64,000 bases of DNA from contig CAVRZA010000011.1 in assembly GCA_963725665.1 (NCBI GenBank), positions 606,935-670,934 on the forward strand, in the 5' to 3' direction. Positions 10,787 to 29,419 of the stretch are shown here, piece after piece. Source of the DNA: an uncultured Actinomycetes bacterium. Its GTDB lineage: Bacteria > Actinomycetota > Thermoleophilia > UBA2241. Made by a program: the position numbers and the translations under genes. The number at the start of each line of letters is the position of its first letter. Within the stretch, counting starts at the first letter, position 1. Under the pieces are notes generated by a model that worked only from the letters and a program-made list of their open reading frames with translations, did no database searches and was not told where the DNA came from.

Positions 10787-10988
10787 CCGGCCGGTGAAGT
10801 GTACCACCGGACCATCCCGTCGAGCTGGGTTGCAGTTGCGCCGCGACGGCACGGTGGTAGCGTTTGGCTGCAGCAGGGATCGCTTGGGGGAGTCCTCTCG
10901 CGACTCGCACGGCCGCCACGCTCGGCTGCGAGGCCGTGGGCAGGGCGGTCCCAACGGGGTGCAATCGGGGGCGACCAAGGGGGGGATC

Positions 10989-12837
10989 ATGACGAACCGA
11001 TGGAACAATGTGCGGCGAGTAGCCCTGCTCGCTGGCGCGGTGGCCGCGCTCACGGCCCTCACCGGAGGCCTCATCGTCTCGCGTGCAGCTGCGGCAAGTC
11101 AGTCTCCGGCGGCGAGTTCTTCAGCGACCACCGGCAAGGTGATGCTCAAGATCGGGTGGATGGAGTCACCCGACAACATGAACCCGTTCATCGGCTGGAG
11201 CAACAACGTCTACGAGATCTACGGCAACGAGTACCTGCGCTTCGTCGAGCGGGACACAAAAACTCTGAAGCCGGGCAGCAAGGGTGTCGCCAAGAGTTGG
11301 GAGGTCTCTCCCGACGGCCTCACGTGGACCTTCCACATCAACAAGGGGATCACCTGGCACGACGGCACGCCGCTGACGGCCGACGATGTCGCCTTCACCT
11401 TCAACTACATCGTCGACAACAACATGCCGCTGCTCAGTACTGCCACCAACAACATCAAGAAGGCCGTCGTCGTCGATCCCTACACGGTGAAGATCATCTG
11501 CACGCGACCCAAGGCGAACATGCTTTACGCGTGGATGATCATCCTGCCCAAGCACATCTGGTCGAAGCTGCCGCCTGATTTCGCGGGCAGCAAGTTCCAG
11601 AACCCGCCGCCCATCATCGGCAACGGTCCCTGGCAGGTCGTCGACTGGAAGCGTAACGACTTCGTCCGGCTGGTCGCGAGGAAGGATTTCTACCTGGGGC
11701 CGCCCAAGATCGATGAGCTCCTCTTCGTCGTCTACCAGAACGCCGATTCGATGGTCGAGGACCTCAAGTCGGGCAACCTCGACGCGGCCTACCTCTTCCC
11801 GGCAGCCCAATACGAGCCGCTCAAGAACACCGCCGGTGTCGCGCTCGAGAAGTACACCTGGTTCAACTGGGACTACCTGGCCTTCAACTGCTACACGGGC
11901 AAGTCACACGGGAACCCGGTGCTGCGTGACCAGCGCTTTCGCGCCGCGCTCGAGTACGCGGTCGACCGCACGCAGATCGTCGACGTCGCCTACAACGGCT
12001 ACGCGATCCCGGGCTACACCTTCATGCCGCCCGGCGACTGGAAGGACCCCGACTACAGCTGGCAGCCCCCCGACGGGGTGCGCCGCGACTTCGACCTCAC
12101 CAAGGCCAACCAGCTGCTCGACCAGGCCGGTTACGCCGACAGCGACGGCGACGGCATCCGCGAGTACAAGGGCAAGGACATCGTGCTGCGCCTGTGGGCC
12201 AACAACGCGTCTCCGGAGAGCCAGCGCGCCTCCAAGCTCATCGCCGGCTGGTTCCGCCAGGTAGGCGTGGGGACCAGGCTCGCGGTCTACGACGACGGCG
12301 TCTACTTCGCCCGCGTCTGGAACTACGACGGCAACACGTTCGCGCCCGACTTCGACATGTACCTCTGGCAGTGGGACGGCTACTTCGACGCCGGCCAGAC
12401 GCTCGACTGCTTCACCAGCGCGCAGATCGAGTACAACAACGAGCTTGCCTGGTCGAACGCGGAGTTCGACCGGCTCGACGCGGTGCAGAACAGGACGCTC
12501 GACCCGTACCAGCGGGCCGAGGTGATCAAGCAGATGCAGCAGGTGATGTACCAGGATGCGCCGGTCATCGTGCTCAGCCATCCCTACAAGCTGGGCGCCT
12601 ATCGCACCGACAAGTGGCAGGGCTGGGAGCCCTCCGACTACGGCAGAGGGCCTGTTTTCGCCGGCCAGATCAACCCGTGGGCGTACTACACCCTGCAGCC
12701 CAAGACGGCTACGGCGGCTGGGGGCGGCACGAGCTCGACCTTGACCGTCGTCATAGTCGTCAGCCGCGGTCGTCGCTGCGGTTGCGGCCTTCTTCCTCGT
12801 GCGGCGCGGGAGGCGCGGACGGGCCGAGGAGGAGTAG
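10989..12837 (+). CDS. ABC transporter substrate-binding protein family 5 (OppA/DppA-like) with C-terminal TM anchor (frameshift near 12762)
   Basis: AKSWEVSPDGLTWTFHI..GITWHDGTPLTADDVAFT and IGNGPW. Alternative frame gives ..AAVVAAVAAFFLVRRGRRGRAEEE* ending at 12837. Confidence 0.9.
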
Positions 12838-13026
12838 GCGGTCAGGCCTGGCCGATACCGGAGTTGACGGTGGGGCGCACCAGGCTGATGCCGGACTGAC
12901 TACGGTCGTGGGTCGCCCGGCAGCAGCGCGTGGAGCACGTGGTCGTTGCTCGCTGTACCGGACCCGTGCCGAGGGTGCAGGGGAGGTAGTCGGCGTCGGC
13001 GATCAGTACAGACGACGGGGCGAGCC

Positions 13027-15194: not shown

Positions 15195-15629
15195 CTATGC
15201 CGAGCGCTCGACCTTTGGCGATTGGTCGCGAGCTCCCCGCGCCAGGACGAACCCGAGGAGCCCGGCGCCGACCAGCACGACCCCCGCGACGAGCCACGGT
15301 CGGGGGTCGGGGTACTGGTCGGCGCCGCTCGCCGTTGCAGTGTGCCAGTACACCGTGCCGGGCCCCTTGCGGTTGAGCCAGGCGATGACGAGGGCGACGA
15401 CGCCGGCCCCGCCGAGAAGTCCGAACGCGGGGCGGTGGAGGCGTCGCGCGGCGGCCAAGACGATGAGCGCGACGACCGCCGCAAGCCCGAACATGGGGCC
15501 TGGCCCGAGCCAGCTTATGCTGCCCAAGGCGACCATCGCACCGGCTGCAGCCCAGGCTGCGAACTGCCACCAGTCGCCGGACGTCGGGCGGGTAGGTGTC
15601 GAACGATGTGTGGCAGTCTGCGTCGTCAC
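15195..15629 (-). CDS. Hypothetical integral membrane protein (about 4 TM)
   Basis: GTG 15629 after GAGG. Four hydrophobic segments. Confidence 0.65.
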   Translation of the reverse strand: MTTQTATHRSTPTRPTSGDWWQFAAWAAAGAMVALGSISWLGPGPMFGLAAVVALIVLAAARRLHRPAFGLLGGAGVVALVIAWLNRKGPGTVYWHTATASGADQYPDPRPWLVAGVVLVGAGLLGFVLARGARDQSPKVERSA

Positions 15630-15723
15630 AGAGCGACCTCTGAGCTTGGATGGTGTTCCTCGGGTAAGTGTACCGCGCTCGGTGGTGCTGTGAACGGACG
15701 GTCGGAGGGCCGACGGCGGGCGG

Positions 15724-16783
15724 TCAGCCGAGGCGGGCGACGCGCTCGCCGCGTACGCTCGTCCGGGCCTTGGCGGAGGCCTCGGCGAGCGCGTCGCCCG
15801 CCTCGGCCACGATGCCGACGACCGCCGCCGCCTTGTCGCGCGGCTTGAGCTTGTCTCCCGGCTTCGGCTTTGGCCAGCAGGCGCACGGCGTCGATGACGG
15901 CCTCCCGCCCTCCACGGGCGAACGACTTCGCCAGGTCGATGGTGGGCGCGACGTCGGCGCTGGCGGCGGCGAACTCCGCCGCCGCCAGCGCGTAGGCGTT
16001 CCCGTTGAAGCTCAACGCGACGCCGCCCTCGTCGCGCACGGCGTTCAGGGCCGGTACGTCGGTGATGGAGTCTCCCACGTACATCACGTTCGCCAGCGTC
16101 GTCTCGTTCTCGGCGGCGACCTCGAGCAGCTCGGTGAGCTTGGCGCCGCCGCCGATGGGACGCACCTCGTCGAGCATCCGGCCGCTCTCGAGGCCCTCCA
16201 TCGCGTACCAGAAGAGCTGGTTGAGCTCGCCCACGGTGCGCTGGTCCCGGGGCGAGAGGTCGGCCATAGAGGTCGCTCCCTCTGGGATGTCGATCACCGG
16301 GCGCGCCAGGATCGCCAGCGCCTGCTCGCGCAGCCACTCCTTCTCTCCTTGGGGCATGCGCCGGGCGTCGAGGGTCACGTCGGTGCAGCGTACGTGTTCG
16401 AACGGGAAGCGCGTCACGTCGCAGAGCGCGCGCAAGTAGGGCGTGTACGAGGTCGAGATGACGTAGGCCGGCAGCAGAGGCGTGAGCTCATCGATCAGCT
16501 TCAAGACGCCGGGGACGAGGAGGACGTTCTCGGCGCTGAACTGCTCGACCTCCTCGTCGCTGACCTCGTAGGCGAGCAGGAACGGCGGCAGCAAGCGCAG
16601 TGTGTCGCCGGCGTTGTAGCCGGGCCGCTGCTCGACGTCGGCGAGAAAGTCGTCGTAGCGCGACAGGCGGGCGAAGAGCTCGTCCCCCGCGGGGATGAAG
16701 CGCTCGGCGATCTCGAGGGCGTTGTCGTTGCGCGAGAGGGGCCCCTCGCAGTCGGTGACGAAGATGCGGCGGATGTGGTTCAC
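15724..16783 (-). CDS. HAD-superfamily hydrolase, EhaR/AF1437-like (frameshift near 15880)
   Basis: FVTDCEGP (motif I variant), VISTSY (II), GGGAK (III), YVGDSITD (IV). C-terminus ..VRGERVARLG* lies in another frame. Confidence 0.8.
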
Positions 16784-16784
16784 C

Positions 16785-17663
16785 CTACGACCTCGCTCTG
16801 AGCTCCCCCTCGACGAGGGCCGTGAGGTCTACCGGCAGGTCGAGCGGCGCACCCGTGTCGGGGTCACGAGCGTACACCACGCCCGCGTCCGCGCACAGGT
16901 CGCCGAGCACGAACTGCCTCACGGTCTGGTAAAGGAGCGGGATCTCGCGCTCCTCGCCGCGGCGGCGGATCTCGGCGAAGAGAGGCTCGGCCTCGCCCTC
17001 GGCGTCGCTGACGCCGTCGAGGCCGAGCCTCTCTTCTTTGGCCAGATACTCCCGCCAGAGCGCGTCCCACTCGTCGCCCCTGATGGGGAAGCGGACGAGG
17101 GCGATCGCCGGCCCGCGGTCGAGCTCAGCCGTCGCCAGGTGCATCATCGCCCCGGTCTCGGCGGCGCGGGCGCGAAGGAGCTCCCAGATGACCTCCTGCC
17201 AGGTTCCCGTTGGTCCGCCGGGGAGCGCCGGGTGGAGGTTGAGGAGCGGGTAGCGGGCGCACATCTGGGGGCTCGCGATGAGCATGTAACCGGCCAGCAC
17301 GAGCACGTCGAGGTCGCGGAACTTCAGCTCCCACATGACCTCGTCGTGGAACTGTTCGCGCCAGAGCGTGCGGCAGGCTACCGGGTCGACGTCGCAGTCG
17401 CTCAGCCGCTCCCGCCAGCGCCGCCGGCTGGCCGTGCTCGAGATCGCCGCTACATCGAACCCGAGGCCCTGGGCGGTCTCGAGGAAGCGGTCGCTCGCCT
17501 CGCTCTCGCCGGGCTCGCGGTCACAGAACACGCAGGCGATGTCGAGAGGCAGCCCGTCTGAGGCGGCGCGGCGCACGACCTCTTCGAGGAGGCGCCGCGC
17601 CGCCACGTCGCGTCCGGTCGAGAGCCAGCCGATGCGCGCCGGTCCGCGCTCGGGACGGATCAC
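16785..17663 (-). CDS. purN: Divergent PurN-like formyltransferase
   Basis: VLAGYML, LNLHPALP and ELDRGP keep the catalytic Asn/His/Asp. Atypical N-terminus IGWLSTGRD and a C-terminal insertion. Confidence 0.75.
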   Translation of the reverse strand: MIRPERGPARIGWLSTGRDVAARRLLEEVVRRAASDGLPLDIACVFCDREPGESEASDRFLETAQGLGFDVAAISSTASRRRWRERLSDCDVDPVACRTLWREQFHDEVMWELKFRDLDVLVLAGYMLIASPQMCARYPLLNLHPALPGGPTGTWQEVIWELLRARAAETGAMMHLATAELDRGPAIALVRFPIRGDEWDALWREYLAKEERLGLDGVSDAEGEAEPLFAEIRRRGEEREIPLLYQTVRQFVLGDLCADAGVVYARDPDTGAPLDLPVDLTALVEGELRARS

Positions 17664-18649
17664 CGTCCAGCCTCGCCCAGCGCGCGCTCGTCTGCGACTC
17701 GCGCGCGCCATTGCTCCTCGCTCGGGTAGGTCGACCGGCCGATCCCGGTGATGCCTTGAGAAGCGGCCCAGGCGGCGAGGTGGCCGGCCGCTTCGAGGCC
17801 GAGACCCTCCAAGAGGCCGCCGATGAACCCGGCGGCGAACAGGTCGCCGGCGCCGGTCACATCGACGACCTCCGCGGGGTGGGGCGGCACGTAGAGGTCG
17901 AGTCGCTTGCCGATGATGCGCGCTCCCCGCGCGCCCATCTTGCAGACGACGAGGCCCGTGCCGACCTTGAGCAGGAACTCGACCGCCTCGTGTGGCTGGA
18001 GTCCGCAGAGCAGCCCGAGCTCGCTCTCGGTGGCGAACACGAACGAGGCGCGCTTGAGGAACGGGATGAAGCTCTTGACGCCACGGCGGGCGTAGATCTC
18101 GCCGGGGTCGAACGCGACCTCGACCTCGCCCGGTAGGCGCTCGAGCAGGCGGAGCTGGGTCTCGAGCGGCTTCTCGCCCACGAACGAAGAGAAGTAGGCG
18201 TAGCGCGTTGTCGGCGCGTGTCGCGGAAGGTCCTTCACGTCGAACTCGTCGTTGGCCCCCGGCCAGACGAAGTTGCGGCGCTCGCCGGCGTCGTCGAGGA
18301 GGATGTAGACGCGCCCGCTCACGCCGGCTCGGCGCACGTAGCGGCCATCGACCGCGCCCAGCTCGTGGAGGAGGAACTCGCCCGTGGCGTCCTCGCCCAC
18401 CCGTCCCATCATGGCGACGGAGAACCCCATGCGGCCGAGGGCGTAGGCGGCGTTGGCCGCCTGTCCACCGCCCGACTGTCGGGGCTCGAGGTAGGCCACG
18501 GCGTCGTCGATGAACTGTCGCAGCTCCTCGGTGAGGCTCTGCTCGGAGCCCGGCGGCGGCAGCTCGCCCCACAGCGGGAAGCTCGCCGGCAGCCGGTAGA
18601 TCAGGTCGAGGTTGAGCGCCCCGCAGCCGACGAGGTCGTACGATCTCAC
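17660..18649 (-). CDS. PfkB/ribokinase family kinase
   Basis: GALNLD, GGQAANAAYALGRMG, GRVGED, VVDVTGAGDLFAAGF. Confidence 0.92.
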   Translation of the reverse strand: MRSYDLVGCGALNLDLIYRLPASFPLWGELPPPGSEQSLTEELRQFIDDAVAYLEPRQSGGGQAANAAYALGRMGFSVAMMGRVGEDATGEFLLHELGAVDGRYVRRAGVSGRVYILLDDAGERRNFVWPGANDEFDVKDLPRHAPTTRYAYFSSFVGEKPLETQLRLLERLPGEVEVAFDPGEIYARRGVKSFIPFLKRASFVFATESELGLLCGLQPHEAVEFLLKVGTGLVVCKMGARGARIIGKRLDLYVPPHPAEVVDVTGAGDLFAAGFIGGLLEGLGLEAAGHLAAWAASQGITGIGRSTYPSEEQWRARVADERALGEAGR

Positions 18650-19701
18650 AGCGCCAGCTCGCCTCGGTAGCACACCACGTCTCCGCCGTCGCGCCGCACG
18701 ACCTCGCCGACGACGCGCGCGGCGAACCCACCGCGCTCGATCACGTCGAGAGCCTTGAGCGTCTGTCCGACGGGCAAGATGACGACCATGCCGAGGCCGC
18801 AGTTGAAGGTCCGCAGCATCTCGTCACGGCTCACGCCGAGGCTGTGGAGCCAGGGGAAGACCGGCGGCGGGGTCCAGCTCGAGAGGTCGATGAGCGCGCC
18901 GAGCCCTTCGGCCACGGCGCGCCCGACGTTGTCGGGAAAGCCGCCGCCGGTGATGTGCGCCGCGGCGTGCACCTCGCAACCGTGTCCGAGGTCGTGCAAC
19001 ACGGGGCTGTAGATGGCCGTCGGCGTGAGGAGCACCTCGCCGACGGTCCGCTCGACATCGGTGGTGAAACGGTCGCCGAGGCCGATCGCGTGGTCGCGCA
19101 GCAGCGCGCGCACCAGGGAGAAGCCGTTCGAGTGCAGTCCGGTCGAGTCGATGCCGACGAGCGCGTCGCCCTCGCGGACGTTCGCCGGCCCCCAGAGCTC
19201 GTCCTTCGCGGCGAGACCGACGGCGAACCCGGCCATGTCAAAGTCGCTGTCGTCCTTGAAATGGCCGGGATGCTCGGCGGTCTCGCCGCCCAGCAGCACG
19301 CAGCCGGCCCGCAGGCAACCCTCGTCGACGCCGGCCACGAGCTCGGCCACCTGCTCGGGGTCGACCTTGCCGATCACGAGGTAGTCGAGGAAGAAGAGCG
19401 GCACGGCGCCGACGGCGGAGACGTCGTTGACGCTCATCGCCACGAGGTCGATGCCGACCGTGTCCAGGCGGCCCATCTCCCTGGCGATGAGCACCTTCGT
19501 GCCCACGCCGTCGGTCCCGGCCACCAGCACAGCGTCCTTGATCGGCGGCAGCCGCATCACGCCTCCGAAGCCGCCGATGCCCTCGACCACCAGTGGGTGT
19601 CGCGTCGAGCGCAGACGCTCCTTGAGCAGACGCACGGCTTCGTTTCCGGCCGCGATATCGACGCCGGCGTCCTTGTAGGTGAACCCGTGATCCTCGCTCA
19701 T
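18646..19701 (-). CDS. purM: AIR synthetase
   Basis: YKDAGVDI, TDGVGTK, GGETAEHPG, GLHSNGFSL, HITGGG, TFNCGLG. Confidence 0.98.
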   Translation of the reverse strand: MSEDHGFTYKDAGVDIAAGNEAVRLLKERLRSTRHPLVVEGIGGFGGVMRLPPIKDAVLVAGTDGVGTKVLIAREMGRLDTVGIDLVAMSVNDVSAVGAVPLFFLDYLVIGKVDPEQVAELVAGVDEGCLRAGCVLLGGETAEHPGHFKDDSDFDMAGFAVGLAAKDELWGPANVREGDALVGIDSTGLHSNGFSLVRALLRDHAIGLGDRFTTDVERTVGEVLLTPTAIYSPVLHDLGHGCEVHAAAHITGGGFPDNVGRAVAEGLGALIDLSSWTPPPVFPWLHSLGVSRDEMLRTFNCGLGMVVILPVGQTLKALDVIERGGFAARVVGEVVRRDGGDVVCYRGELAL

Positions 19702-22021: not shown

Positions 22022-23512
22022 CTATTCCTGCGGCGTCCGGCAGCTGTCGCGCAGGGAGTCACCGCAGGCATCGCCCCAGTCGTCTTTGCGCTTGCCGTGC
22101 TCCCCTCCGGCTTCGAAGCGCAGCTTGGTGAGAGCCAGCTCGTCCGGGACCTCGATGGGGTAGTCGCAGGTGAAGCAGGCGCGGCAGAACTGCGACTCCG
22201 GCAGCCCGGTGCTCTCCTGTAGGCCGGCGAGCGTGAGGTAGTGCAGTGAGGTGGCTCCCACGTGGCGGCGGATCTCCTCGATGGAGAGGTTGGCGGCGAT
22301 CAGCTCCGCCTTGGTCGCCATGTCGATGCCGTAGAAGCAGGGGCAGGTGATCGGCGGGGAGCTGACGCGCAGGTGCACCTCGCGCGCGCCGGCCGAGTAC
22401 AGCATGTCGACGAGCTGCCCGGTCGTGTTGCCGCGCACGATCGAATCGTCGACGACGACGAGGCGCTTGCCGTGGATGGTTTGCTGCAAGGGGTTCAGCT
22501 TCATGCGGATGCCGAGCTGGCGCAGGTGCTGGTCGGGCTGGATGAAGGTGCGGTAGACGTAGCGGTTCTTGATGAGACCCTCGCCGAACGGGATGCCGCT
22601 CTCGCGGCTGTAGCCGATCGCGGCCGAGATGCCGGTATCGGGCACCGGTATGACGAGGTCGGCCTCGACCGGCGCCTCCATGGCGAGGTGGCGGCCCATC
22701 TCGATGCGGCACTCGTGCAGGTTGCGGCCCAGCATGACGGAGTCGGGCCGTGCGAAGTAGATGAACTCGAAGATGCAGAGGGCGGGACGCGCTCCGGGGA
22801 GCTCGACGCGCTCGCTGCGCACCCCGCCTGGGTCGGCAAGGACGATCTCGCCGGGGTCGATCTCGCGCACGAAGCTCGCGCCCACGATGTCGAGGGCGCA
22901 GGTCTCGCTGGCGATGATGGGATCGCCTTCGAGGTCGCCCAGGCAGAGCGGGCGCACGCCGTAGGGGTCGCGGAACCCGACGAGGGCGTCGGAGGCGAGC
23001 ACCGTCGCCGAGAAGGCGCCGCGGATCTTCTCGACGGCGGCGCGCACGGCGGCCTGCAGGTCGCCCTGGGCCTCGTGGGCGATGAGGGCCGTGATGACCT
23101 CGGTGTCGGTCGAGGAGGAGAACTTGACGCCCTGCGCGCGGAGCTCGTCGCGCAGGGCCGTCGTGTTGACGAGGTTGCCGTTGTGCCCGAGGGCGATCGT
23201 GCCCCCGTTGCGTCGGCGCACGAAGGGCTGGGCGTTCTGCCACGCCGTCGACCCCGTGGTCGAGTAGCGCACGTGGCCGATCGCCATCTGCCCGCTGAGA
23301 CTGGTCAGCGTCTGCTCGTCGAACACCTGCGCGACGAGCCCCATCTCCTTGATCACCGTGATCTGACCGTCGTCGGAGACGGCGATCCCGGCGCTCTCCT
23401 GACCGCGATGCTGCAGGGCGTAGAGGCCGAAGAAGGTGAGCCGGGCCACGTCGCGCTCGGGCGCGACGACCCCGAAGACGCCGCAACTGTCGTGTAGGCG
23501 TTCGCCGTGCAT
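22022..23512 (-). CDS. purF: Amidophosphoribosyltransferase
   Basis: Propeptide then CGVFG, LQHRGQE, GHVRYST, HNGNL, VVDDSIVRG, Fe-S cysteines CRAC. Confidence 0.98.
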   Translation of the reverse strand: MHGERLHDSCGVFGVVAPERDVARLTFFGLYALQHRGQESAGIAVSDDGQITVIKEMGLVAQVFDEQTLTSLSGQMAIGHVRYSTTGSTAWQNAQPFVRRRNGGTIALGHNGNLVNTTALRDELRAQGVKFSSSTDTEVITALIAHEAQGDLQAAVRAAVEKIRGAFSATVLASDALVGFRDPYGVRPLCLGDLEGDPIIASETCALDIVGASFVREIDPGEIVLADPGGVRSERVELPGARPALCIFEFIYFARPDSVMLGRNLHECRIEMGRHLAMEAPVEADLVIPVPDTGISAAIGYSRESGIPFGEGLIKNRYVYRTFIQPDQHLRQLGIRMKLNPLQQTIHGKRLVVVDDSIVRGNTTGQLVDMLYSAGAREVHLRVSSPPITCPCFYGIDMATKAELIAANLSIEEIRRHVGATSLHYLTLAGLQESTGLPESQFCRACFTCDYPIEVPDELALTKLRFEAGGEHGKRKDDWGDACGDSLRDSCRTPQE

Positions 23513-23514
23513 GG

Positions 23515-25791
23515 CTAACCGAGGCGGGCGGGGAGCGATTCGTAGGCGGCGAGGAGCTCGTCGACCGGCAGGTCGACGAGCTCCTCGCCGCCGGACGTGA
23601 TGCGCAGCCGCCCGCCGGCATCGACGCTGCCGAGCACGGCGAGCGGCACGATGCCCTCGCCGTCGTCCGCCACCAGGGCGCGCAGCTCGGCGAGCCGCTC
23701 GGGGGCGCAGGTGACGACGATGCGCGACGGGCCCTCGCCGAAGAGCGCGATGTCGTCGCGCATCGTCGTCTCGAGGACGATCGCGGCGCCCCTGGCCGGC
23801 GGCGGGGCCGCCGTCTGGGCGCCGCCGGTCACGCCCGAAGCGAGACAACACTCGGCCAGGGCGACGCCGAGGCCGCCCTCGGCGCAGTCGTGCGCCGACT
23901 TCACGGCGCCTGCGGCGATGGCCCGCCGCACGACTCGTTGCAGCGCCTTCTCGAGGGCGAGATCGACGTCGGGGACGCGTCCCTCGACGCGCCCGAAGCG
24001 GCGCTTCTGGTACTCCGAGCCGTCGACGGCCGCCGTGTCGAGCGGTCCGAGCAAGACGACGGCGTCGCCGGCATCCTGGAACCGTTGGTCGACGCGTACG
24101 CTCACATCGTCGATGACGCCCAGCATGCCGACCATGGGCGTGGGGTAGATGGCGTTGCCGAAGCTCTCGTTGTAGAAGCTGACGTTGCCGCTCACGACGG
24201 GAGTCTCGAGCGCCTCGCACGCCTCGGCCATGCCCTCGACCGCCTGCTCGAAGGTCCAGTACATCTCGCCCTTCTCGGGGTTGCCGAAGTTGAGGCAGTC
24301 AGTGACGGCCACGGGCAGCGCTCCGGCGCATGAGAGGTTACGCGCCGCCTCGGCCACGGCCGCCTTGGCGCCGCGGTAGGGGTCGAGGTAGCAGTGGCGC
24401 CCGTTGCAGTCGTTGACGAAGGCGATGCCCCTCGGCGTGCCCTTGATACGGAGCACGGCGGCGTCGGAGCCGGGGATCTGCACGGTGTTGGCCTGCACGA
24501 TGTAGTCGTACTGCTCCCAAGCCCAGCGCTTGCTGGCGATGTTGGGGGCGGCCAGCAGCTCGAGGAGCGCGGCGCCCAGGTCGCGAGGCGCCGGGTATGC
24601 GCCGTCGGTCACCGCCACCGGCTCGTCGGCCAGGTACGGCGGCTTGACCGACGGCGTACGGATCACCGGCGCCTCGTCGGCCAGGCGCCGCGCGGGGATG
24701 TCGGCCACGCGCTCACCGTGCCAGTAGATGCGCAGCATCTTCGAGTCGGTGACCTCGCCGATCACCGTGCAGTCGAGGTCCCAGCGGTCGCAGACCTCGC
24801 GCACCGCCTCGAGCTGGGCCGGCTCGACGATCGAGAGCATTCTCTCCTGGCTCTCCGAGATCATGATCTCCCAGGGTTCCATGTCGGCCTCGCGCAGGGG
24901 CACGCGGTCGGCGTGGATATCGAGCCCCACCATGCCCTTGCTGGCCATCTCGGAGGAGGAGGAGGTGAGCCCGGCGGCGCCGAGGTCCTGCATGCTGACG
25001 ACGAGGCGCCGATGCAGGAGCTCGAGGCAGGCCTCGATCAGCTTCTTCTCGGTGAACGGATCGCCGACCTGCACCGAGGGGCGCTTCTCCTCGAGGGTCT
25101 CGTCGAACTCCTGGCTCGCCAGCACCGAGGCGCCGCCGATGCCGTCGCGGCCGGTCTTGGAGCCGATGAGCACGACGCGATTGCCGGGTCCGCTGGCGAT
25201 GGCGCGTACGATCTGGTCGGTGCGCAGCAGACCGGCACTCATCGCGTTCACGAGGCAGTTGCCGGCGTAGCTCTCCTCGAAGTACACCTCGCCGCCCACC
25301 GTGGGGATGCCGAGGCAGTTGCCGTAGAAGGCGATGCCGCCGACAACGCCGTCGAACAGGAAGCGCTGGCGGACGTTCTCGTCGCCCTCGATCTCGCCGA
25401 AGCGCAGGGAGTCGAGGCTGACGCAGGGCCGCGCGCCCATGGTGAAGATGTCGCGCACGATGCCGCCCACGCCGGTGGCGGCGCCCTGGAACGGCTCGAC
25501 CGCCGACGGGTGGTTGTGGCTCTCGACCTTCATCGCCACCGCCCAGCCGTCGCCGACGTCGATGATGCCGGCGTTCTCGCCCGGTCCCTGCAGGATGCGC
25601 GGGCCGCTGGTCGGAAAGCGCTTGAGGATCGGCTTGGAGTGCTTGTAGCTGCAGTGCTCGCTCCACATGAGCGAGTAGATGGCGAGCTCGACATACGTCG
25701 GCTCGCCACCCTGGATGCGGCAGATATGCTCGTACTCATCGGGGGTGAGCCCGAGCTTGACGGCGGCCTCTAACGTGGCCCGCTCGCTCAT
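23515..25791 (-). CDS. purL: FGAM synthase subunit PurL
   Basis: WSEHCSYK, ESHNHPS, DLGAAG, SESQERM, LNFGNP, SGNVSFYN. Confidence 0.98.
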   Translation of the reverse strand: MSERATLEAAVKLGLTPDEYEHICRIQGGEPTYVELAIYSLMWSEHCSYKHSKPILKRFPTSGPRILQGPGENAGIIDVGDGWAVAMKVESHNHPSAVEPFQGAATGVGGIVRDIFTMGARPCVSLDSLRFGEIEGDENVRQRFLFDGVVGGIAFYGNCLGIPTVGGEVYFEESYAGNCLVNAMSAGLLRTDQIVRAIASGPGNRVVLIGSKTGRDGIGGASVLASQEFDETLEEKRPSVQVGDPFTEKKLIEACLELLHRRLVVSMQDLGAAGLTSSSSEMASKGMVGLDIHADRVPLREADMEPWEIMISESQERMLSIVEPAQLEAVREVCDRWDLDCTVIGEVTDSKMLRIYWHGERVADIPARRLADEAPVIRTPSVKPPYLADEPVAVTDGAYPAPRDLGAALLELLAAPNIASKRWAWEQYDYIVQANTVQIPGSDAAVLRIKGTPRGIAFVNDCNGRHCYLDPYRGAKAAVAEAARNLSCAGALPVAVTDCLNFGNPEKGEMYWTFEQAVEGMAEACEALETPVVSGNVSFYNESFGNAIYPTPMVGMLGVIDDVSVRVDQRFQDAGDAVVLLGPLDTAAVDGSEYQKRRFGRVEGRVPDVDLALEKALQRVVRRAIAAGAVKSAHDCAEGGLGVALAECCLASGVTGGAQTAAPPPARGAAIVLETTMRDDIALFGEGPSRIVVTCAPERLAELRALVADDGEGIVPLAVLGSVDAGGRLRITSGGEELVDLPVDELLAAYESLPARLG

Positions 25792-25846: not shown

Positions 25847-26590
25847 TCACGCCCGCACCGTCCGCTGTGCTCGCTCCACCAGCGCGTCGACCATCGACTG
25901 GAAGAAGTGGCGGCCGTCGACGCCTCCGGCGACGGCCGCCTCGACCGAGTTCTCGGGGTGCGGCATCATGCCGAACACGTTGTGCGTCTCGTTGCAGACG
26001 CCGGCGATACCGTCGAGGGCGCCGTTGGGGCTTGACGAGCCGGCCATCGTGCCGTCGGGTTCGCAGTAGCGCAGCACGACCTGGCCGTTCGCCTGCATGT
26101 GCGTCAGGGTCTCGGGGTCGACGCGGTAGTTGCCCTCGTTGTGCTTGACCACGATGCGCAGCACCTCGCCCTCGCGGCAGGTCGAGGTGAAGGGCGTGTC
26201 GGCGTTCTCGACGCGCAGGTTGACGTAGCGGCAGACGAACTTGAGACCGGTGTTGCGGATCAGCGCTCCCGGCAGCAGGTGCGCCTCGCAGAGGATCTGG
26301 AAGCCGTTGCAGATGCCCAGCACGAGGCCGCCGCCGGCGGCGAAGTCGGCCACGGCCTGCATGATGGGGCTGAAGCGCGCGATGGCGCCGCAGCGCAGGT
26401 AGTCGCCGTACGAGAAGCCGCCCGGCAGGACCACGGCGTCGACGGCGCGCAGATCGGTGTCCTTGTGCCAGAGGTAGACGGGCTCGGCGGCGGCGAACGT
26501 GCCCACAGCGTGGTGGGCGTCGGCGTCGCAGTTGGAGCCGGGAAAGACGACGACGCCGAAGCGGAAGGGGTGCTCGCTTGTGTCGCTCAC
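25847..26590 (-). CDS. purQ: FGAM synthase glutaminase subunit
   Basis: FPGSNCD, PGGFSYGDYLR, GICNGFQ, MMPHPE. Confidence 0.98.
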   Translation of the reverse strand: MSDTSEHPFRFGVVVFPGSNCDADAHHAVGTFAAAEPVYLWHKDTDLRAVDAVVLPGGFSYGDYLRCGAIARFSPIMQAVADFAAGGGLVLGICNGFQILCEAHLLPGALIRNTGLKFVCRYVNLRVENADTPFTSTCREGEVLRIVVKHNEGNYRVDPETLTHMQANGQVVLRYCEPDGTMAGSSSPNGALDGIAGVCNETHNVFGMMPHPENSVEAAVAGGVDGRHFFQSMVDALVERAQRTVRA

Positions 26591-27146: not shown

Positions 27147-29120
27147 CTACTTCACGACCATGAACGGTCGCATCATGTCGTTTTCCTCGTGCTCCAGGAT
27201 GTGGCAGTGGTACACCCAACTGCCGAAGCTCCCGGTCTTCCAGTTGAAGTCCAGGAGGGACGTCGCGTTCAGCGTGAACTTGGCCCTCGTCCACGTCACA
27301 TAGCCCGGCGGGGCCTTCACGGTGTCCTTGTAGCCCATCTCTTCCGGGGCCGGCGGGAACTCAGGCCCTTCTAGGTAGGGGAACCCGGACGAAAGAGATA
27401 CCCCGGTAACGTTGGGCTTGGGGTGTAGGGGGTCATTCCGTCCAGACTCGACATAGGCGGCCCAATCCGTCTTGTAGTCTTCGACCCCTTCGACTACGTC
27501 TTCTGTGCCCTGAACGTCTCGGAACGCCTGCCGCTTCACGACCTGGACCGCCACCAGGTGCGGGTGCATCGGGTGAGCGTCCACGGTGAGGTTGATCCAC
27601 CGCCACGTCTCGGTCGTGCCGGCCTTGATGATGTCCGTCGTCGGGTCCGTGAAGTGGTAGCCGTTGAGCAGCACCTCGCTCGGCACCAACTCCTCAGGGT
27701 CGAACCCCGGAACCATAGTCTCCTTGGCCACGACATCCCGCGGCGGAAGACCCGGCGTTGCGGCCAGACGAGCGACGGCCGGCAGCTTCAGAGCAGCAGG
27801 AGCCACGGTAGCGTCGATACCGGCCAGTGGCTGGTTGACCTTGATCTTCATGAGGTCGGTCACAGAGGGAGCGTCGCCATCCGGATAAGGCTCGTTGGCG
27901 TCGTTGGTCATCATGACCACCGGGGTTTCCCCCACCACCGGGCTTTTCGCCAGACGGAAGTCCACGATCACGTCGTAGCGCTCGCCGGGGGCGATCAGGA
28001 GGCTGGTCTTTGCCACCGGAGCGGGTAGAAGACCACCCTCGGACCCAATGACATAGAAGGTGAGGTCCTTCACCCCATCATTGAAGTGCAGGTTGTAGAA
28101 GCGGGCCTGCGAGCCGTTCAGGAGGCGCAGCCGGTATCTCCTGGGCTCGGCATTCAAGTAGGGATAGGCCTTGCCGTTGATCACCGGGGTGTCGCCGAAG
28201 AACTCCGGAACCCATACCGGGTGAATGGCGCTGATGCCTTCGGTCGGATAGAAGAGCGTGCCATTCTCATTGACGTCGGGGGTGTCAGGGTCATCGTCGT
28301 TGAACTGCTTGTCCTGGATCACCAGCGGCAGGTGGTACTTGCCGTAGCCGGCCGGGACCTTCTGAACATGCTTGATCAACTTGCCATACTTGTCCTTGTC
28401 GGGGCCGTTGACTGTGATCGTGCTGCCGTTGTCGACGTTGTCGAAGAGCAGGTAGCCCGCGGCCAAACCGAGATAGGGCTTGAACCGCGTGGCCCCCATC
28501 GTGTGGTCGTGGTACCAGAGCAGCGTCGCCGACTGGTCGTTCATGTAGGTGAAGGTCTTGGTGACGAAGTCCTCACCATGCTTCCCATCGGCAGTCCACC
28601 ACTGCATGGGTGTCCCATCGAAGCGCGCCGCGGTGTGCCCGCCGTGGAGGTGTGGGATCGCAGCGCCCGGGGGCACTGGCGTGACTCCAAACTCATTGAC
28701 TCCTCCAAACCCCGGCGCGCCGCCGATGGTGGGGTCGATGGCGTTCTTCAGTGGGAAGGCGTCGAGGGCAGTGGGAAGGTTGTTGACCCATTTGACCACC
28801 ACGGGCCGGCCCGTTTTCGCCACGATCGTCGGGCCGAGGAGGACGGGGTCCTTCCCGGGCTGTCCGTAGGTCCAAACGGTAGCCGGACCCAGGCTGGAGT
28901 TGAACGTGTGCTGGCTGGCCCGCATGTCGATCACGTAGTAGTCGGCCCACCCCGAGTAGAGCGGGTTGAACGTCTCCGTTGCCACAGGCGGAACGGGCAG
29001 CGCATCTGCCCACTTGGCCATCGGCGGGCTCTGAGCGTAGGCTGGGGCACTTATCCCCATGAGGCCGACGCCCGTCAACACCGCGATGACGATGGCGAGA
29101 CTGAGTCTCCTTGGTCTCAT
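27147..29120 (-). CDS. Secreted multicopper oxidase (CotA/bilirubin oxidase-like)
   Basis: All four Cu motifs: HLHG, WYHDH, HPMHPH, HCHILEHEENDMM. Signal peptide ending AYA. Confidence 0.95.
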   Translation of the reverse strand: MRPRRLSLAIVIAVLTGVGLMGISAPAYAQSPPMAKWADALPVPPVATETFNPLYSGWADYYVIDMRASQHTFNSSLGPATVWTYGQPGKDPVLLGPTIVAKTGRPVVVKWVNNLPTALDAFPLKNAIDPTIGGAPGFGGVNEFGVTPVPPGAAIPHLHGGHTAARFDGTPMQWWTADGKHGEDFVTKTFTYMNDQSATLLWYHDHTMGATRFKPYLGLAAGYLLFDNVDNGSTITVNGPDKDKYGKLIKHVQKVPAGYGKYHLPLVIQDKQFNDDDPDTPDVNENGTLFYPTEGISAIHPVWVPEFFGDTPVINGKAYPYLNAEPRRYRLRLLNGSQARFYNLHFNDGVKDLTFYVIGSEGGLLPAPVAKTSLLIAPGERYDVIVDFRLAKSPVVGETPVVMMTNDANEPYPDGDAPSVTDLMKIKVNQPLAGIDATVAPAALKLPAVARLAATPGLPPRDVVAKETMVPGFDPEELVPSEVLLNGYHFTDPTTDIIKAGTTETWRWINLTVDAHPMHPHLVAVQVVKRQAFRDVQGTEDVVEGVEDYKTDWAAYVESGRNDPLHPKPNVTGVSLSSGFPYLEGPEFPPAPEEMGYKDTVKAPPGYVTWTRAKFTLNATSLLDFNWKTGSFGSWVYHCHILEHEENDMMRPFMVVK

Positions 29121-29419
29121 CTTCTCCCCTCTTCCTCTCGCCGACCGGGCGCACCCCATGTGCCCCGGTCCTCGGTCGGCGAGACAGGGAAAACCTACCA
29201 ATCAAGTCCGCATTCCAAGTAGACCGTTCTACGTGTCTTCGAGTGGACGGATGTCATACTCGCGCGCGGGGCTGAGCATGAAGCCGGAGGGACGTTGCCT
29301 TAGTTGACAACGAAATCGGGGCGGCGCGCTGATCTCTCGATCAGCGCGCCGCCCCACCGAAGCTACACGCTAAGGGTGGGGCCGCGGCCGCTCGGCGGCC
29401 GCGGCGCCCGAACACTCCG

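Follow-up and report, generated by a model that had tools for sequence, protein, structure and literature searches.

A PurN-like protein, an AF1437/EhaR-type HAD protein and a PfkB-family kinase as a probable module for the third step of purine synthesis

A divergent PurN-like formyltransferase, an AF1437/EhaR-type HAD-superfamily protein and a PfkB-family kinase, encoded side by side in the purine operon of a soil actinobacterium, probably represent a bacterial, folate-type form of a widespread module that replaces PurN or PurT at step three of purine synthesis (GAR to FGAR). We infer this activity from conservation, gene order, exclusion of PurN, naturally occurring fusions and preserved catalytic residues. 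An earlier note on this DNA had described the three genes as tightly coupled inside the purine operon, and their recurrent order and joint presence or absence bear out a unit that is conserved, inherited together and linked with purine synthesis. The note had proposed for them an undescribed route of salvage, repair or bypass. As an option beside a normal pathway this proposal was abandoned, because the genome contains no canonical PurN or PurT and exclusion of PurN was seen among 41 genomes of the class Thermoleophilia and 51 of Bathyarchaeia, which makes GAR formylation itself the most likely role of the unit.

Organization of the locus

The window, that is, the whole stretch of 64,000 nucleotides analysed here, carries on its minus strand, in this order, purQ (25847-26590; NF002957, 321 bits), purL (23515-25791; NF002290, 992 bits), purF (22022-23509; TIGR01134, 527 bits), a gap, purM for AIR synthetase (18646-19701; TIGR00878, 368.3 bits against a cut-off of 236.35), the gene of the PfkB/ribokinase-family kinase (17660-18649, 329 aa; PF00294, 121.6 bits), the PurN-like gene (16785-17663), the HAD gene (15724-16783, start at 16783) and a canonical purH for AICAR formyltransferase/IMP cyclohydrolase (13531 to about 15114, start approximate; NF002049, 709 bits against a cut-off of 402). 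The neighbours of the trio are pur genes, and no hydrogenase genes were found in the purine operon that holds it. The sequence was read at each junction: the purM stop and the kinase start share GTGA at 18649-18646, the kinase stop and the PurN-like start share GTGA at 17663-17660, and the PurN-like stop TAG (16787-16785) is followed by a single base (16784) and the HAD start GTG (16783), exactly the tight coupling of the four genes that had been described. The order purM-kinase-PurN-like-HAD was conserved in all 12 fetched genome regions from the same bacterial family and in 30 of 33 loci labelled Thermoleophilia or Actinomycetota, the three misses having an upstream flank of less than about 1 kb.

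The PurN-like protein

The PurN-like protein carries the Formyl_trans_N fold (PF00551, 46.1 bits vs 26.1) and scored 57.3 bits with TIGR00639, below the curated equivalog cut-off of 150.1, whereas canonical PurN proteins of sister genomes scored 182-229 bits. When the protein was aligned with two canonical PurNs from its own bacterial family, residues N142, H144 and D182 were invariant, as they were across 46 variant PurN-like sequences. The first loop reads GWLSTGRD in place of the G(V)LISGSGSN or G(V)LISGSGTN of those two canonical proteins, and its G17, R18 and D19 were invariant in the variant clade; retention of N/H/D and alteration of the loop to STGRD, both claimed before, were thus visible in the alignment. 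The Gly/Ser-rich first loop of PurN (SGxGSN type) is said to bind the 5'-phosphate of GAR. The AF2 model had a pLDDT of 94.4, and in a Foldseek search the top 17 ranks among the matches listed were PurN GAR transformylases, with TM(target) values of 0.59-0.78 and E-values of 1e-12 to 1e-9.

With PurN (TIGR00639; e.g. PDB 1cde and 3auf) the window protein shares the fold, the Asn-His-Asp set and the place in the purine operon, in a genome that needs GAR transformylase activity. It differs by STGRD instead of SGSGSN/SGSGTN, by two insertions and a C-terminal extension, by its length (292 aa, compared with 184-229 aa for the matched solved PurNs), by a changed motif after the catalytic His (LPGGPTGTWQEVIW) and by its constant companion, an AF1437-type HAD protein to which it is sometimes fused. 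It is presumed to be the catalytic GAR formyltransferase.

The HAD protein and the kinase

The HAD protein matched AF1437 of Archaeoglobus fulgidus (PDB 1y8a), a structural-genomics protein of 2005 that has no assigned function, over residues 7-277 (E 2.2e-28, 30% identity). The AF2 model of residues 1-300 (pLDDT 96.6) superposed on 1y8a with TM values of 0.83/0.79 and an rmsd of 2.4, and the next structural matches were phosphoserine phosphatases. Both proteins share the same cap and a D-x-E-G-P first motif, which reads DWEGP in AF1437 and DCEGP in the window, so that the D+2 position is Glu, not Asp. The motifs quoted earlier were recovered from the translation; among 50 sequences the core residues D11, E13, K215, D238 and D242 were invariant and S110-T111 nearly so. 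Many homologues are named 'energy-converting hydrogenase A subunit R' by JGI, which, together with the 1y8a match, agrees with the earlier placement in the AF1437/EhaR family.

The kinase has a PfkB domain with a catalytic GAGD-type motif (TGAGD in the translation), and its best NCBIfam matches were ribokinase (TIGR02152, 96.3 bits against a cut-off of 299.65) and ribose-1-phosphate kinase (NF053626, 91.3 against 330). In each of five module-bearing genomes of other phyla, the best match of the window kinase lay inside the module; the window kinase is thus orthologous to that of the HAD-formyltransferase-kinase modules. A PfkB-family aminoimidazole riboside (AIR-riboside) kinase is known in Salmonella and acts on the riboside of a purine intermediate, the type of activity proposed here. 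The similarity is weak: PDB 1tyy, 1tz3 and 1tz6, which we take to be structures of the Salmonella enzyme, matched the window kinase at 50 bits, under the 65 bits of ordinary ribokinases. We know of no HAD or formyltransferase partner of the Salmonella enzyme.

Distribution and exclusion of PurN and PurT

In a profile search of the source genome (97.5% complete), neither PurN nor PurT scored above the curated cut-offs; purD is present, and the only two Formyl_trans_N genes are an Fmt-like gene on contig 8 and the PurN-like gene of the trio. Among 41 genomes of the class Thermoleophilia, the PurN-like and HAD genes were present together in 22 and absent together from 19, and a canonical PurN above the cut-off was found in 18 others with zero overlap, leaving one genome (76% complete) with neither the pair nor a canonical PurN. 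One genus has the pair in three genomes and a canonical PurN in two, and the locus of the latter two is purM-kinase-purH, which indicates that the PurN-like and HAD genes were lost jointly. On comparative grounds, these two genomes have lost the pair and regained a canonical PurN, with the kinase still standing between purM and purH. The retained kinase orthologue, at 58-61% identity like its kin, is evidently of value without the other two proteins. The genome counts given here include relatives and are therefore not independent samples.

PurN or PurT above the cut-off was likewise found in none of the five module-bearing genomes of other phyla, for which completeness is not given. In a sample of 51 Bathyarchaeia genomes, the HAD gene was present in 22, a PurN above the cut-off in five (none of them with HAD) and a PurT-like gene in nine, one of which also has HAD. 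The 38 purM-positive Bathyarchaeia comprise 20 with HAD, eight with PurT-like only, four with PurN, four with weak PurN-like matches only and two with nothing. The PurT-like matches score below the curated cut-off, so their GAR-formylating function is likewise only putative. The genome with both HAD and PurT-like and the two purM-positive genomes that lack any candidate count against the module reading.

Module variants and fusions in other lineages

The earlier note had named a lack of co-occurrence in other genomes as grounds for refutation, but the three genes occur together in at least five phylum-level groups; the genes are adjacent, and the HAD and kinase are orthologous across lineages (EhaRST type). 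Among 47 non-Thermoleophilia genome loci, a PurN-like gene lay within 1.5 kb of HAD in 11 and an Ftr-like gene in 31, and a kinase lay within 5 kb of HAD in 37, most misses being short contigs. The HAD and kinase pair stands beside a PurN-like gene in Thermodesulfobacteriota-labelled and Methanomassiliicoccales genomes, where the trio is isolated from other pur genes, and the Bathyarchaeia order is purF-purD-HAD-Ftr-like-kinase-purQ/L/M. Natural fusions join PurN-like to HAD (P0289 and P0391) and an ATP-grasp domain with a weak PurT-like match to HAD (P0333, P0340 and ORFs of 964-970 aa in L120 and L123). In six to eight metagenome loci the order is purF-purD-HAD-kinase and a formyl-transfer gene is missing from the vicinity, which also counts against the module reading.

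These distributions bear on the alternative that the PurN-like protein is a fast-evolving, self-sufficient GAR transformylase and that the HAD protein and kinase are unrelated housekeeping or salvage passengers, such as a nucleotidase and a riboside or ribose kinase. The PurN fold and N/H/D set, the kinase that outlives its partners in two genomes and the match to the Salmonella AIR-riboside kinase structures would fit it. We regard it as improbable, in view of the agreement between HAD and PurN-like in 41 of 41 genomes, the two PurN-like-HAD fusions, the occurrence of the same HAD family next to purD in other phyla, beside or fused to two unrelated formyl-transfer folds, and the trios that stand apart from other pur genes. 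Still less probable is that the trio acts on another substrate (AIR, AICAR, another aminated ribose compound or a cofactor precursor) and a different enzyme formylates GAR, as the transferase-less loci and the hydrogenase-linked Methanothermobacter homologues described below might suggest; against this, module and PurN do not occur together in either of two separate lineages, nor, with one exception, do module and PurT-like in Bathyarchaeia, where the module lies exactly between purD and purQ/purL, and purH, which serves the other formylation step, is canonical in the window.

Proposed mechanism

In the module reading preferred here, the PurN-like protein would be the catalyst and would probably move a formyl group from 10-formyl-tetrahydrofolate by its retained Asn-His-Asp set; the HAD protein would be an obligate partner that comes and goes with the formyl-transfer enzyme and is sometimes fused to it, and the kinase the usual third member. 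The parts played by the two partners can be assigned only tentatively. It is possible that the HAD protein strips the 5'-phosphate from GAR, the riboside is formylated and the kinase restores the phosphate, a net ATP-driven formylation. It is just as possible that the HAD protein acts while bound to the transferase, as a subunit that handles phosphate or presents the substrate, and that the kinase only recovers escaped riboside; some other role for both takes up the remaining probability. The intact catalytic residues of the HAD protein and the invariant Arg-Asp in the loop said to hold the 5'-phosphate in PurN would speak for dephosphorylation, formylation and rephosphorylation, the sequence that the earlier note had suggested for a pathway intermediate, and retention of the kinase in the two genomes that lost its partners speaks against an obligatory three-step cycle. 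The canonical purH implies that 10-formyl-THF is in use, so no problem of donor supply would explain why a plain PurN would not do, a further point against the module reading.

PurT, which is formate- and ATP-dependent, spends one ATP per formyl group, the same net cost if the HAD protein and kinase bracket the formylation, and some organisms carry this HAD family fused to a distant PurT-like ATP-grasp. The PurT fold, however, is unrelated to that of the window transferase, and PurT is absent from the source genome. In the riboflavin pathway a HAD phosphatase removes a phosphate midway and a kinase restores one later, a precedent, by analogy only, for dephosphorylation, transformation and rephosphorylation in a nucleotide-derived pathway.

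Relation to EhaR, EhaS and EhaT

In the part of the literature available to us, EhaR, EhaS and EhaT are encoded by the last three genes of the Methanothermobacter eha operon, EhaS is annotated as Ftr(-like) and EhaT as ribokinase(-like), the homologues are co-transcribed with the hydrogenase operon and not with pur genes (PMC3087415), and the eha proteins are regarded as subunits of the hydrogenase, with no assigned role. They correspond to the present trio as a same-family HAD protein, a formyl-transfer homologue and a ribokinase-like kinase. The two sets differ in that EhaS has the Ftr fold and the window transferase the PurN fold, and in that EhaRST sit with hydrogenase genes, which the window operon lacks; a trio of EhaRST type with an Ftr-like member also occurs inside Bathyarchaeia purine clusters.

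According to the accessible portions of two reports, purN and purT are absent from purine-making Archaeoglobi, four Methanobacteriales species and M. kandleri (Brown et al. 2011; PMC3261824), and the GAR formyltransferase of such archaea was still called 'unidentified' in 2022 (PMC9012536). The trio is a testable candidate for this gap of purine makers with neither purN nor purT. The wider proposal, which we consider rather unlikely as a whole, is that a HAD protein, a formyl-transfer enzyme of variable fold and an EhaT-type kinase are the missing GAR formyltransferase system of Archaeoglobi, Methanobacteriales, Methanopyrus, many Bathyarchaeia and several bacterial lineages, working by a riboside route. 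GAR would be dephosphorylated, the riboside formylated and the product rephosphorylated to FGAR, a route not described for purine synthesis, and the formyl source would be the C1 carrier of the organism (formyl-THF, formyl-methanofuran or formyl-H4MPT) or formate plus ATP. If true, the riboside route would be a new variant of the textbook pathway, and the presence of ehaRST with the Eha hydrogenase would be explained by replenishment of a formyl pool drained for biosynthesis. The module points to a function for AF1437 and for EhaR, EhaS and EhaT, the three 'hydrogenase subunits'. It would change both the pathway annotation of Thermoleophilia, Bathyarchaeia and Methanomassiliicoccales MAGs otherwise scored as lacking step 3 and the withdrawal of formyl units from the C1 pool in metabolic models.

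Frameshift in the HAD gene

The HAD gene is interrupted by a one-base frameshift in this assembly, which the earlier note had overlooked. Its span, 16783-15724, measures 1060 nt and is no multiple of three; the table-11 ORF extends to 15626 with an Arg-rich tail, and the C-terminal tail of the family (consensus FRKxVRGExIGxLG), with a TGA at 15726-15724, is present in the DNA in another frame. Compared with contigs of relatives about 94-95% identical, the window has one surplus base near 15879 (15879-15887), as seen in three of four sequencing runs examined, from two studies. If real, the frameshift would deprive this strain of the conserved tail, and the gene might be a recent pseudogene in a decaying trio, which is highly improbable given the relatives without the extra base, the purD of the same assembly, which likewise matches in two frames, and the split matches in pur genes of several other long-contig MAGs, all of which suggest assembly indels. 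Elsewhere the HAD gene is undamaged, with 88-90% identity to P0122.

Distribution of the HAD gene and its neighbours

The HAD family to which the protein encoded between purM and purH belongs accompanies, and is sometimes fused to, formyl-transfer enzymes of three unrelated folds. The genomes concerned have no PurN and mostly no PurT, and the pair lies next to purD or within a purine operon. Species genomes were scanned with an alignment of the HAD family, the best 80 of 570 relatives' loci were used, and neighbours were identified by tblastn, with a formyl-transfer gene accepted within 1.5 kb of the HAD gene and a kinase within 5 kb. Grouped by their labels, all 33 loci of Thermoleophilia/Actinomycetota (one of them titled Deltaproteobacteria) carried the PurN-like gene and 30 the kinase. 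Each of these two genes was found at 7 of the 8 loci from Thermodesulfobacteriota/Deltaproteobacteria/Pseudomonadota, at both loci from Methanomassiliicoccales and at the single locus from Bipolaricaulota, and the one locus titled 'uncultured bacterium' had the PurN-like gene and no kinase. At the 35 loci from Bathyarchaeia the partner was an Ftr-like gene (31 loci), which is homologous to formylmethanofuran:H4MPT formyltransferase (358 bits), with the kinase at 27 loci; the gene order there was purF-purD-HAD-Ftr-like-kinase, followed by purQ/purL/purM on the opposite strand. Misses were mostly contigs that ended too early, and the kinase was not found at three loci with enough flank (L076, L077 and L100). 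When the window kinase was used as query, its best match was the module's own kinase in all five module-bearing genomes of other phyla, and no PurN or PurT above cut-off was found in any of these five. A gene-neighbourhood check across bacteria and archaea had been proposed in the earlier note, and the HAD gene was indeed found with a formyl-transfer gene and a kinase in several phyla; the trio it described is real and conserved.

Some loci showed further features. L041 (JBLMXT010000089.1), titled Deltaproteobacteria, had the Thermoleophilia-type order purM-kinase-PurN-like-HAD with 54-69% identity to the window proteins, and its bin label may be wrong. At three loci labelled Thermodesulfobacteriota, where the trio stands outside other pur genes, an AI-2E family transporter (PF01594) directly follows kinase-PurN-like-HAD (L080:9069-10139, L096:8987-10132 and L105:3997-5064). 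In Bipolaricaulota, a PNP_UDP_1 nucleoside phosphorylase gene (L071:1017-1817, minus strand) adjoins HAD, PurN-like, kinase and purH.

Fusions and other architectures

The search of representative proteins gave 580 clusters, and three long proteins stood among the 150 listed. Of these, P0289 was a fusion of a full-length PurN-like variant (40% identity to the window PurN-like protein) with the HAD, and in P0333 and P0340 the HAD was joined to an ATP-grasp region of ~590 aa that matched the PurT type weakly. P0391 was a further PurN-like plus HAD fusion. P0390 (682 aa) was left out of the fusion count because it had no PurN-like match and its C-terminal part resembles antisense read-through.

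Metagenomes were scanned with HADs of the DWEGP type, and 80 loci were kept. An Ftr-like gene adjoined the HAD gene in 55 of them, 36 of which also had purD and the kinase; an ATP-grasp gene was adjacent or fused to it in 7-8, including ORFs of 964-970 aa. A further 6-8 of the 80 had the order purF-purD-HAD-kinase, and a formyl-transfer gene was not found nearby. At loci L130-L137, purF-purD-HAD is accompanied by a kinase gene in the other orientation, and the flanks of 8 kb contain no gene for formyl transfer; L130 is surrounded by unrelated genes (for ABC exporters, a beta-CASP nuclease and a 2-oxoacid:ferredoxin oxidoreductase). No further purine or C1 genes were found among the neighbours of the ATP-grasp-HAD ORFs or of the purF-purD-HAD-kinase loci.

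PurN and PurT in the window's genome, its relatives and Bathyarchaeia

Neither PurN nor PurT had a match at cut-off in the window's own assembly, which is 97.5% complete, and only two Formyl_trans_N genes are present in it, one Fmt-like and located on contig 8, the other the PurN-like gene of the window. A missing purD as the reason for the module was ruled out, since purD is present in the assembly.

The class was sampled with 41 genomes, comprising the window's own, 24 of the same family and 16 from six other families. The PurN-like variant was found in 22 of them, 21 at an E-value of 1e-60 or better, the remaining match being fragmented and coming from a genome of 51% completeness, and the HAD was present in the same 22. 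Canonical PurN scored above cut-off in 18 genomes with zero overlap with these 22, and one genome (76% complete) had neither. A single genus is divided, with the PurN-like and HAD pair in three genomes and canonical PurN in two. Because the locus in both of the latter genomes reads purM-kinase-purH, the PurN-like and HAD genes were removed jointly. Of the 41 genomes, 24 have the kinase orthologue, among them both canonical-PurN genomes of the divided genus, where its identity of 58-61% is like that of its kin. Since the relatives are not independent, this complementarity is taken to reflect a few replacement events and is not treated as statistics.

Among 51 Bathyarchaeia genomes, 22 had the HAD. 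PurN scored above cut-off in five, none with the HAD, and PurT-like matches of 175-302 bits, all under the curated cut-off, were found in nine, one with the HAD. The 38 purM-positive genomes divided into HAD (20), PurT-like only (8), PurN (4), weak PurN-like only (4) and none of these (2).

Characteristics of the three proteins

Against the PurN equivalog model, whose cut-off is 150 bits, the PurN-like protein reached 57 bits, and it passed Pfam Formyl_trans_N; its predicted model (pLDDT 94.4) had PurN structures as first matches, at TM(target) 0.59-0.78. Alignment with two canonical PurN proteins of sister genomes bore out both features read earlier from the sequence, namely a retained catalytic set (Asn142, His144 and Asp182) and an altered first loop, STGRD where the canonical proteins have SGSGSN or SGSGTN. 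The Gly-Arg-Asp of this loop was invariant in 46 variant PurN-like sequences. Unlike canonical PurN, the protein carries two insertions and is extended at its C-terminus, and the motif beyond the catalytic His differs.

The earlier assignment of the HAD to the AF1437 family was confirmed, AF1437 of Archaeoglobus fulgidus being the sole match among solved structures (E 2e-28). The predicted HAD model (pLDDT 96.6) was superposed on 1y8a at TM 0.83, and its next structural matches were phosphoserine phosphatases, ThrH and MtnX. The HAD looks catalytically competent because its core residues are conserved; the D+2 position is Glu, a residue that occurs there in at least one true HAD phosphatase. 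The kinase is a ribokinase-like PfkB protein with a GAGD motif and scored far under every curated equivalog cut-off. A special tie to the Salmonella AIR-riboside kinase was dropped, ordinary ribokinases being more similar. The predicted complex of the PurN-like protein and the HAD (ipSAE 0.00 and 0.00, mark 0.32) speaks neither for nor against pairing.

Proposed function

Purine synthesis in some archaea has a gap at the same step. In Brown et al. 2011 (PMC3261824), purN and purT are recorded as not found in two Archaeoglobi, four Methanobacteriales species and M. kandleri, and M. thermautotrophicus is given as a purine prototroph; the four species, there called 'Methanomicrobiales', are Methanosphaera, two Methanobrevibacter and M. 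thermoautotrophicus. Chadwick et al. 2022 (PMC9012536) still call the enzyme unidentified. The JGI name for the window HAD family is 'energy-converting hydrogenase A subunit R'. For EhaS and EhaT, PMC3087415, in which they are annotated as Ftr and ribokinase, was the one relevant paper in the openly accessible main texts searched; within these texts nothing was found on the function of EhaR or AF1437/1Y8A, for glycinamide riboside only two human-disease papers came up, nothing on function for GAR formylation via formylmethanofuran or in Methanobacteriales or Archaeoglobus, and no paper joining the HAD family, the Eha names and the archaeal GAR-formylation gap. The bacterial operon ties in with this question about how archaea make purines and allows it to be tested directly.

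From gene content and neighbourhood, we infer that GAR is converted to FGAR by the module and that the transferase type matches the C1 carrier of each host, in which case the common partner would have to relate to the shared substrate GAR/FGAR rather than the formyl donor. Two mechanisms agree about equally well with this. In the one proposed in the earlier note, the HAD would take off the 5'-phosphate, the transferase would then formylate the riboside and the kinase would put the phosphate back. This is compatible with the invariant Arg-Asp in the first loop of the PurN-like protein, the counterpart of the loop that binds the phosphate in PurN, and with the Bathyarchaeia order purD-HAD-transferase-kinase. 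In the other, the HAD would act on the transferase in the manner of a subunit that handles phosphate or presents the substrate, with the kinase only rescuing escaped riboside; the fact that the kinase persists where the PurN-like and HAD genes have been lost fits better with this mechanism, or with an added salvage role. Neither accounts for why a plain PurN would not do here; 10-formyl-THF is available in the host, as its canonical purH shows. The earlier interpretation was right in spirit and over-specified the chemistry, and 'bypass' understates the route, which would be the main one, as the genome has neither PurN nor PurT above cut-off.

Locus layout and the HAD frameshift

The window (GC ~0.70) belongs to a Thermoleophilia-like actinobacterium, judging by how its closest protein relatives are named. 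The purine operon lies on its minus strand, with purQ at 25847-26590, purL at 23515-25791 and purF at 22022-23509, followed after a gap of ~2.3 kb by purM (18646-19701), the PfkB kinase (17660-18649), the PurN-like gene (16785-17663), the HAD gene (from 16783) and purH (13531-about 15114). The junctions had been read exactly: GTGA stands at 18649-18646 and 17663-17660, and the PurN-like TAG and the HAD GTG are separated by one base, 16784. The flanking genes, for a multicopper-oxidase-like protein (27147-29201, minus) and an oligopeptide/nickel-type ABC substrate-binding protein (10794-12899, plus), have no relation to purines.

The HAD gene had been ended at a TGA at 15726-15724, which is present but out of frame with the first 300 codons, a frameshift that was missed. 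The family has a conserved C-terminal tail (consensus FRKxVRGExIGxLG), which in the window stands at 15724-15790, out of frame with the N-terminal 300 codons. Comparison with the closest homologues placed one surplus base just past the AVR codons, at ~15879-15887. We lean towards an assembly indel, because these homologues continue in frame throughout; because the base at 15879 is absent in 3 of the 4 sequencing runs compared, from 2 studies, whose contigs belong to ~94-95% identical relatives and not to the same strain (best share of sampled words in any run 0.26, less than half); because the purD of the genome, outside the window at G000:C6:549262-550525, was matched by its model in two frames, one after the other (positions 1-325 and 311-424), which suggests another 1-base indel of the same assembly; and because several further long-contig MAGs have split pur genes. 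A strain-specific pseudogene is a possible alternative. In nearly all members of the family, bacterial and archaeal, the terminal Leu-Gly of the tail forms the very last residues.

The distance between HAD and purH in relatives is ~0.2 to 5.8 kb. In the window, a frame at 15195-15590 (minus), the tail of an ORF at 15195..16337, lies between the HAD stop and purH and would encode a small, strongly hydrophobic protein with several A/V/L/G runs that resemble membrane helices.
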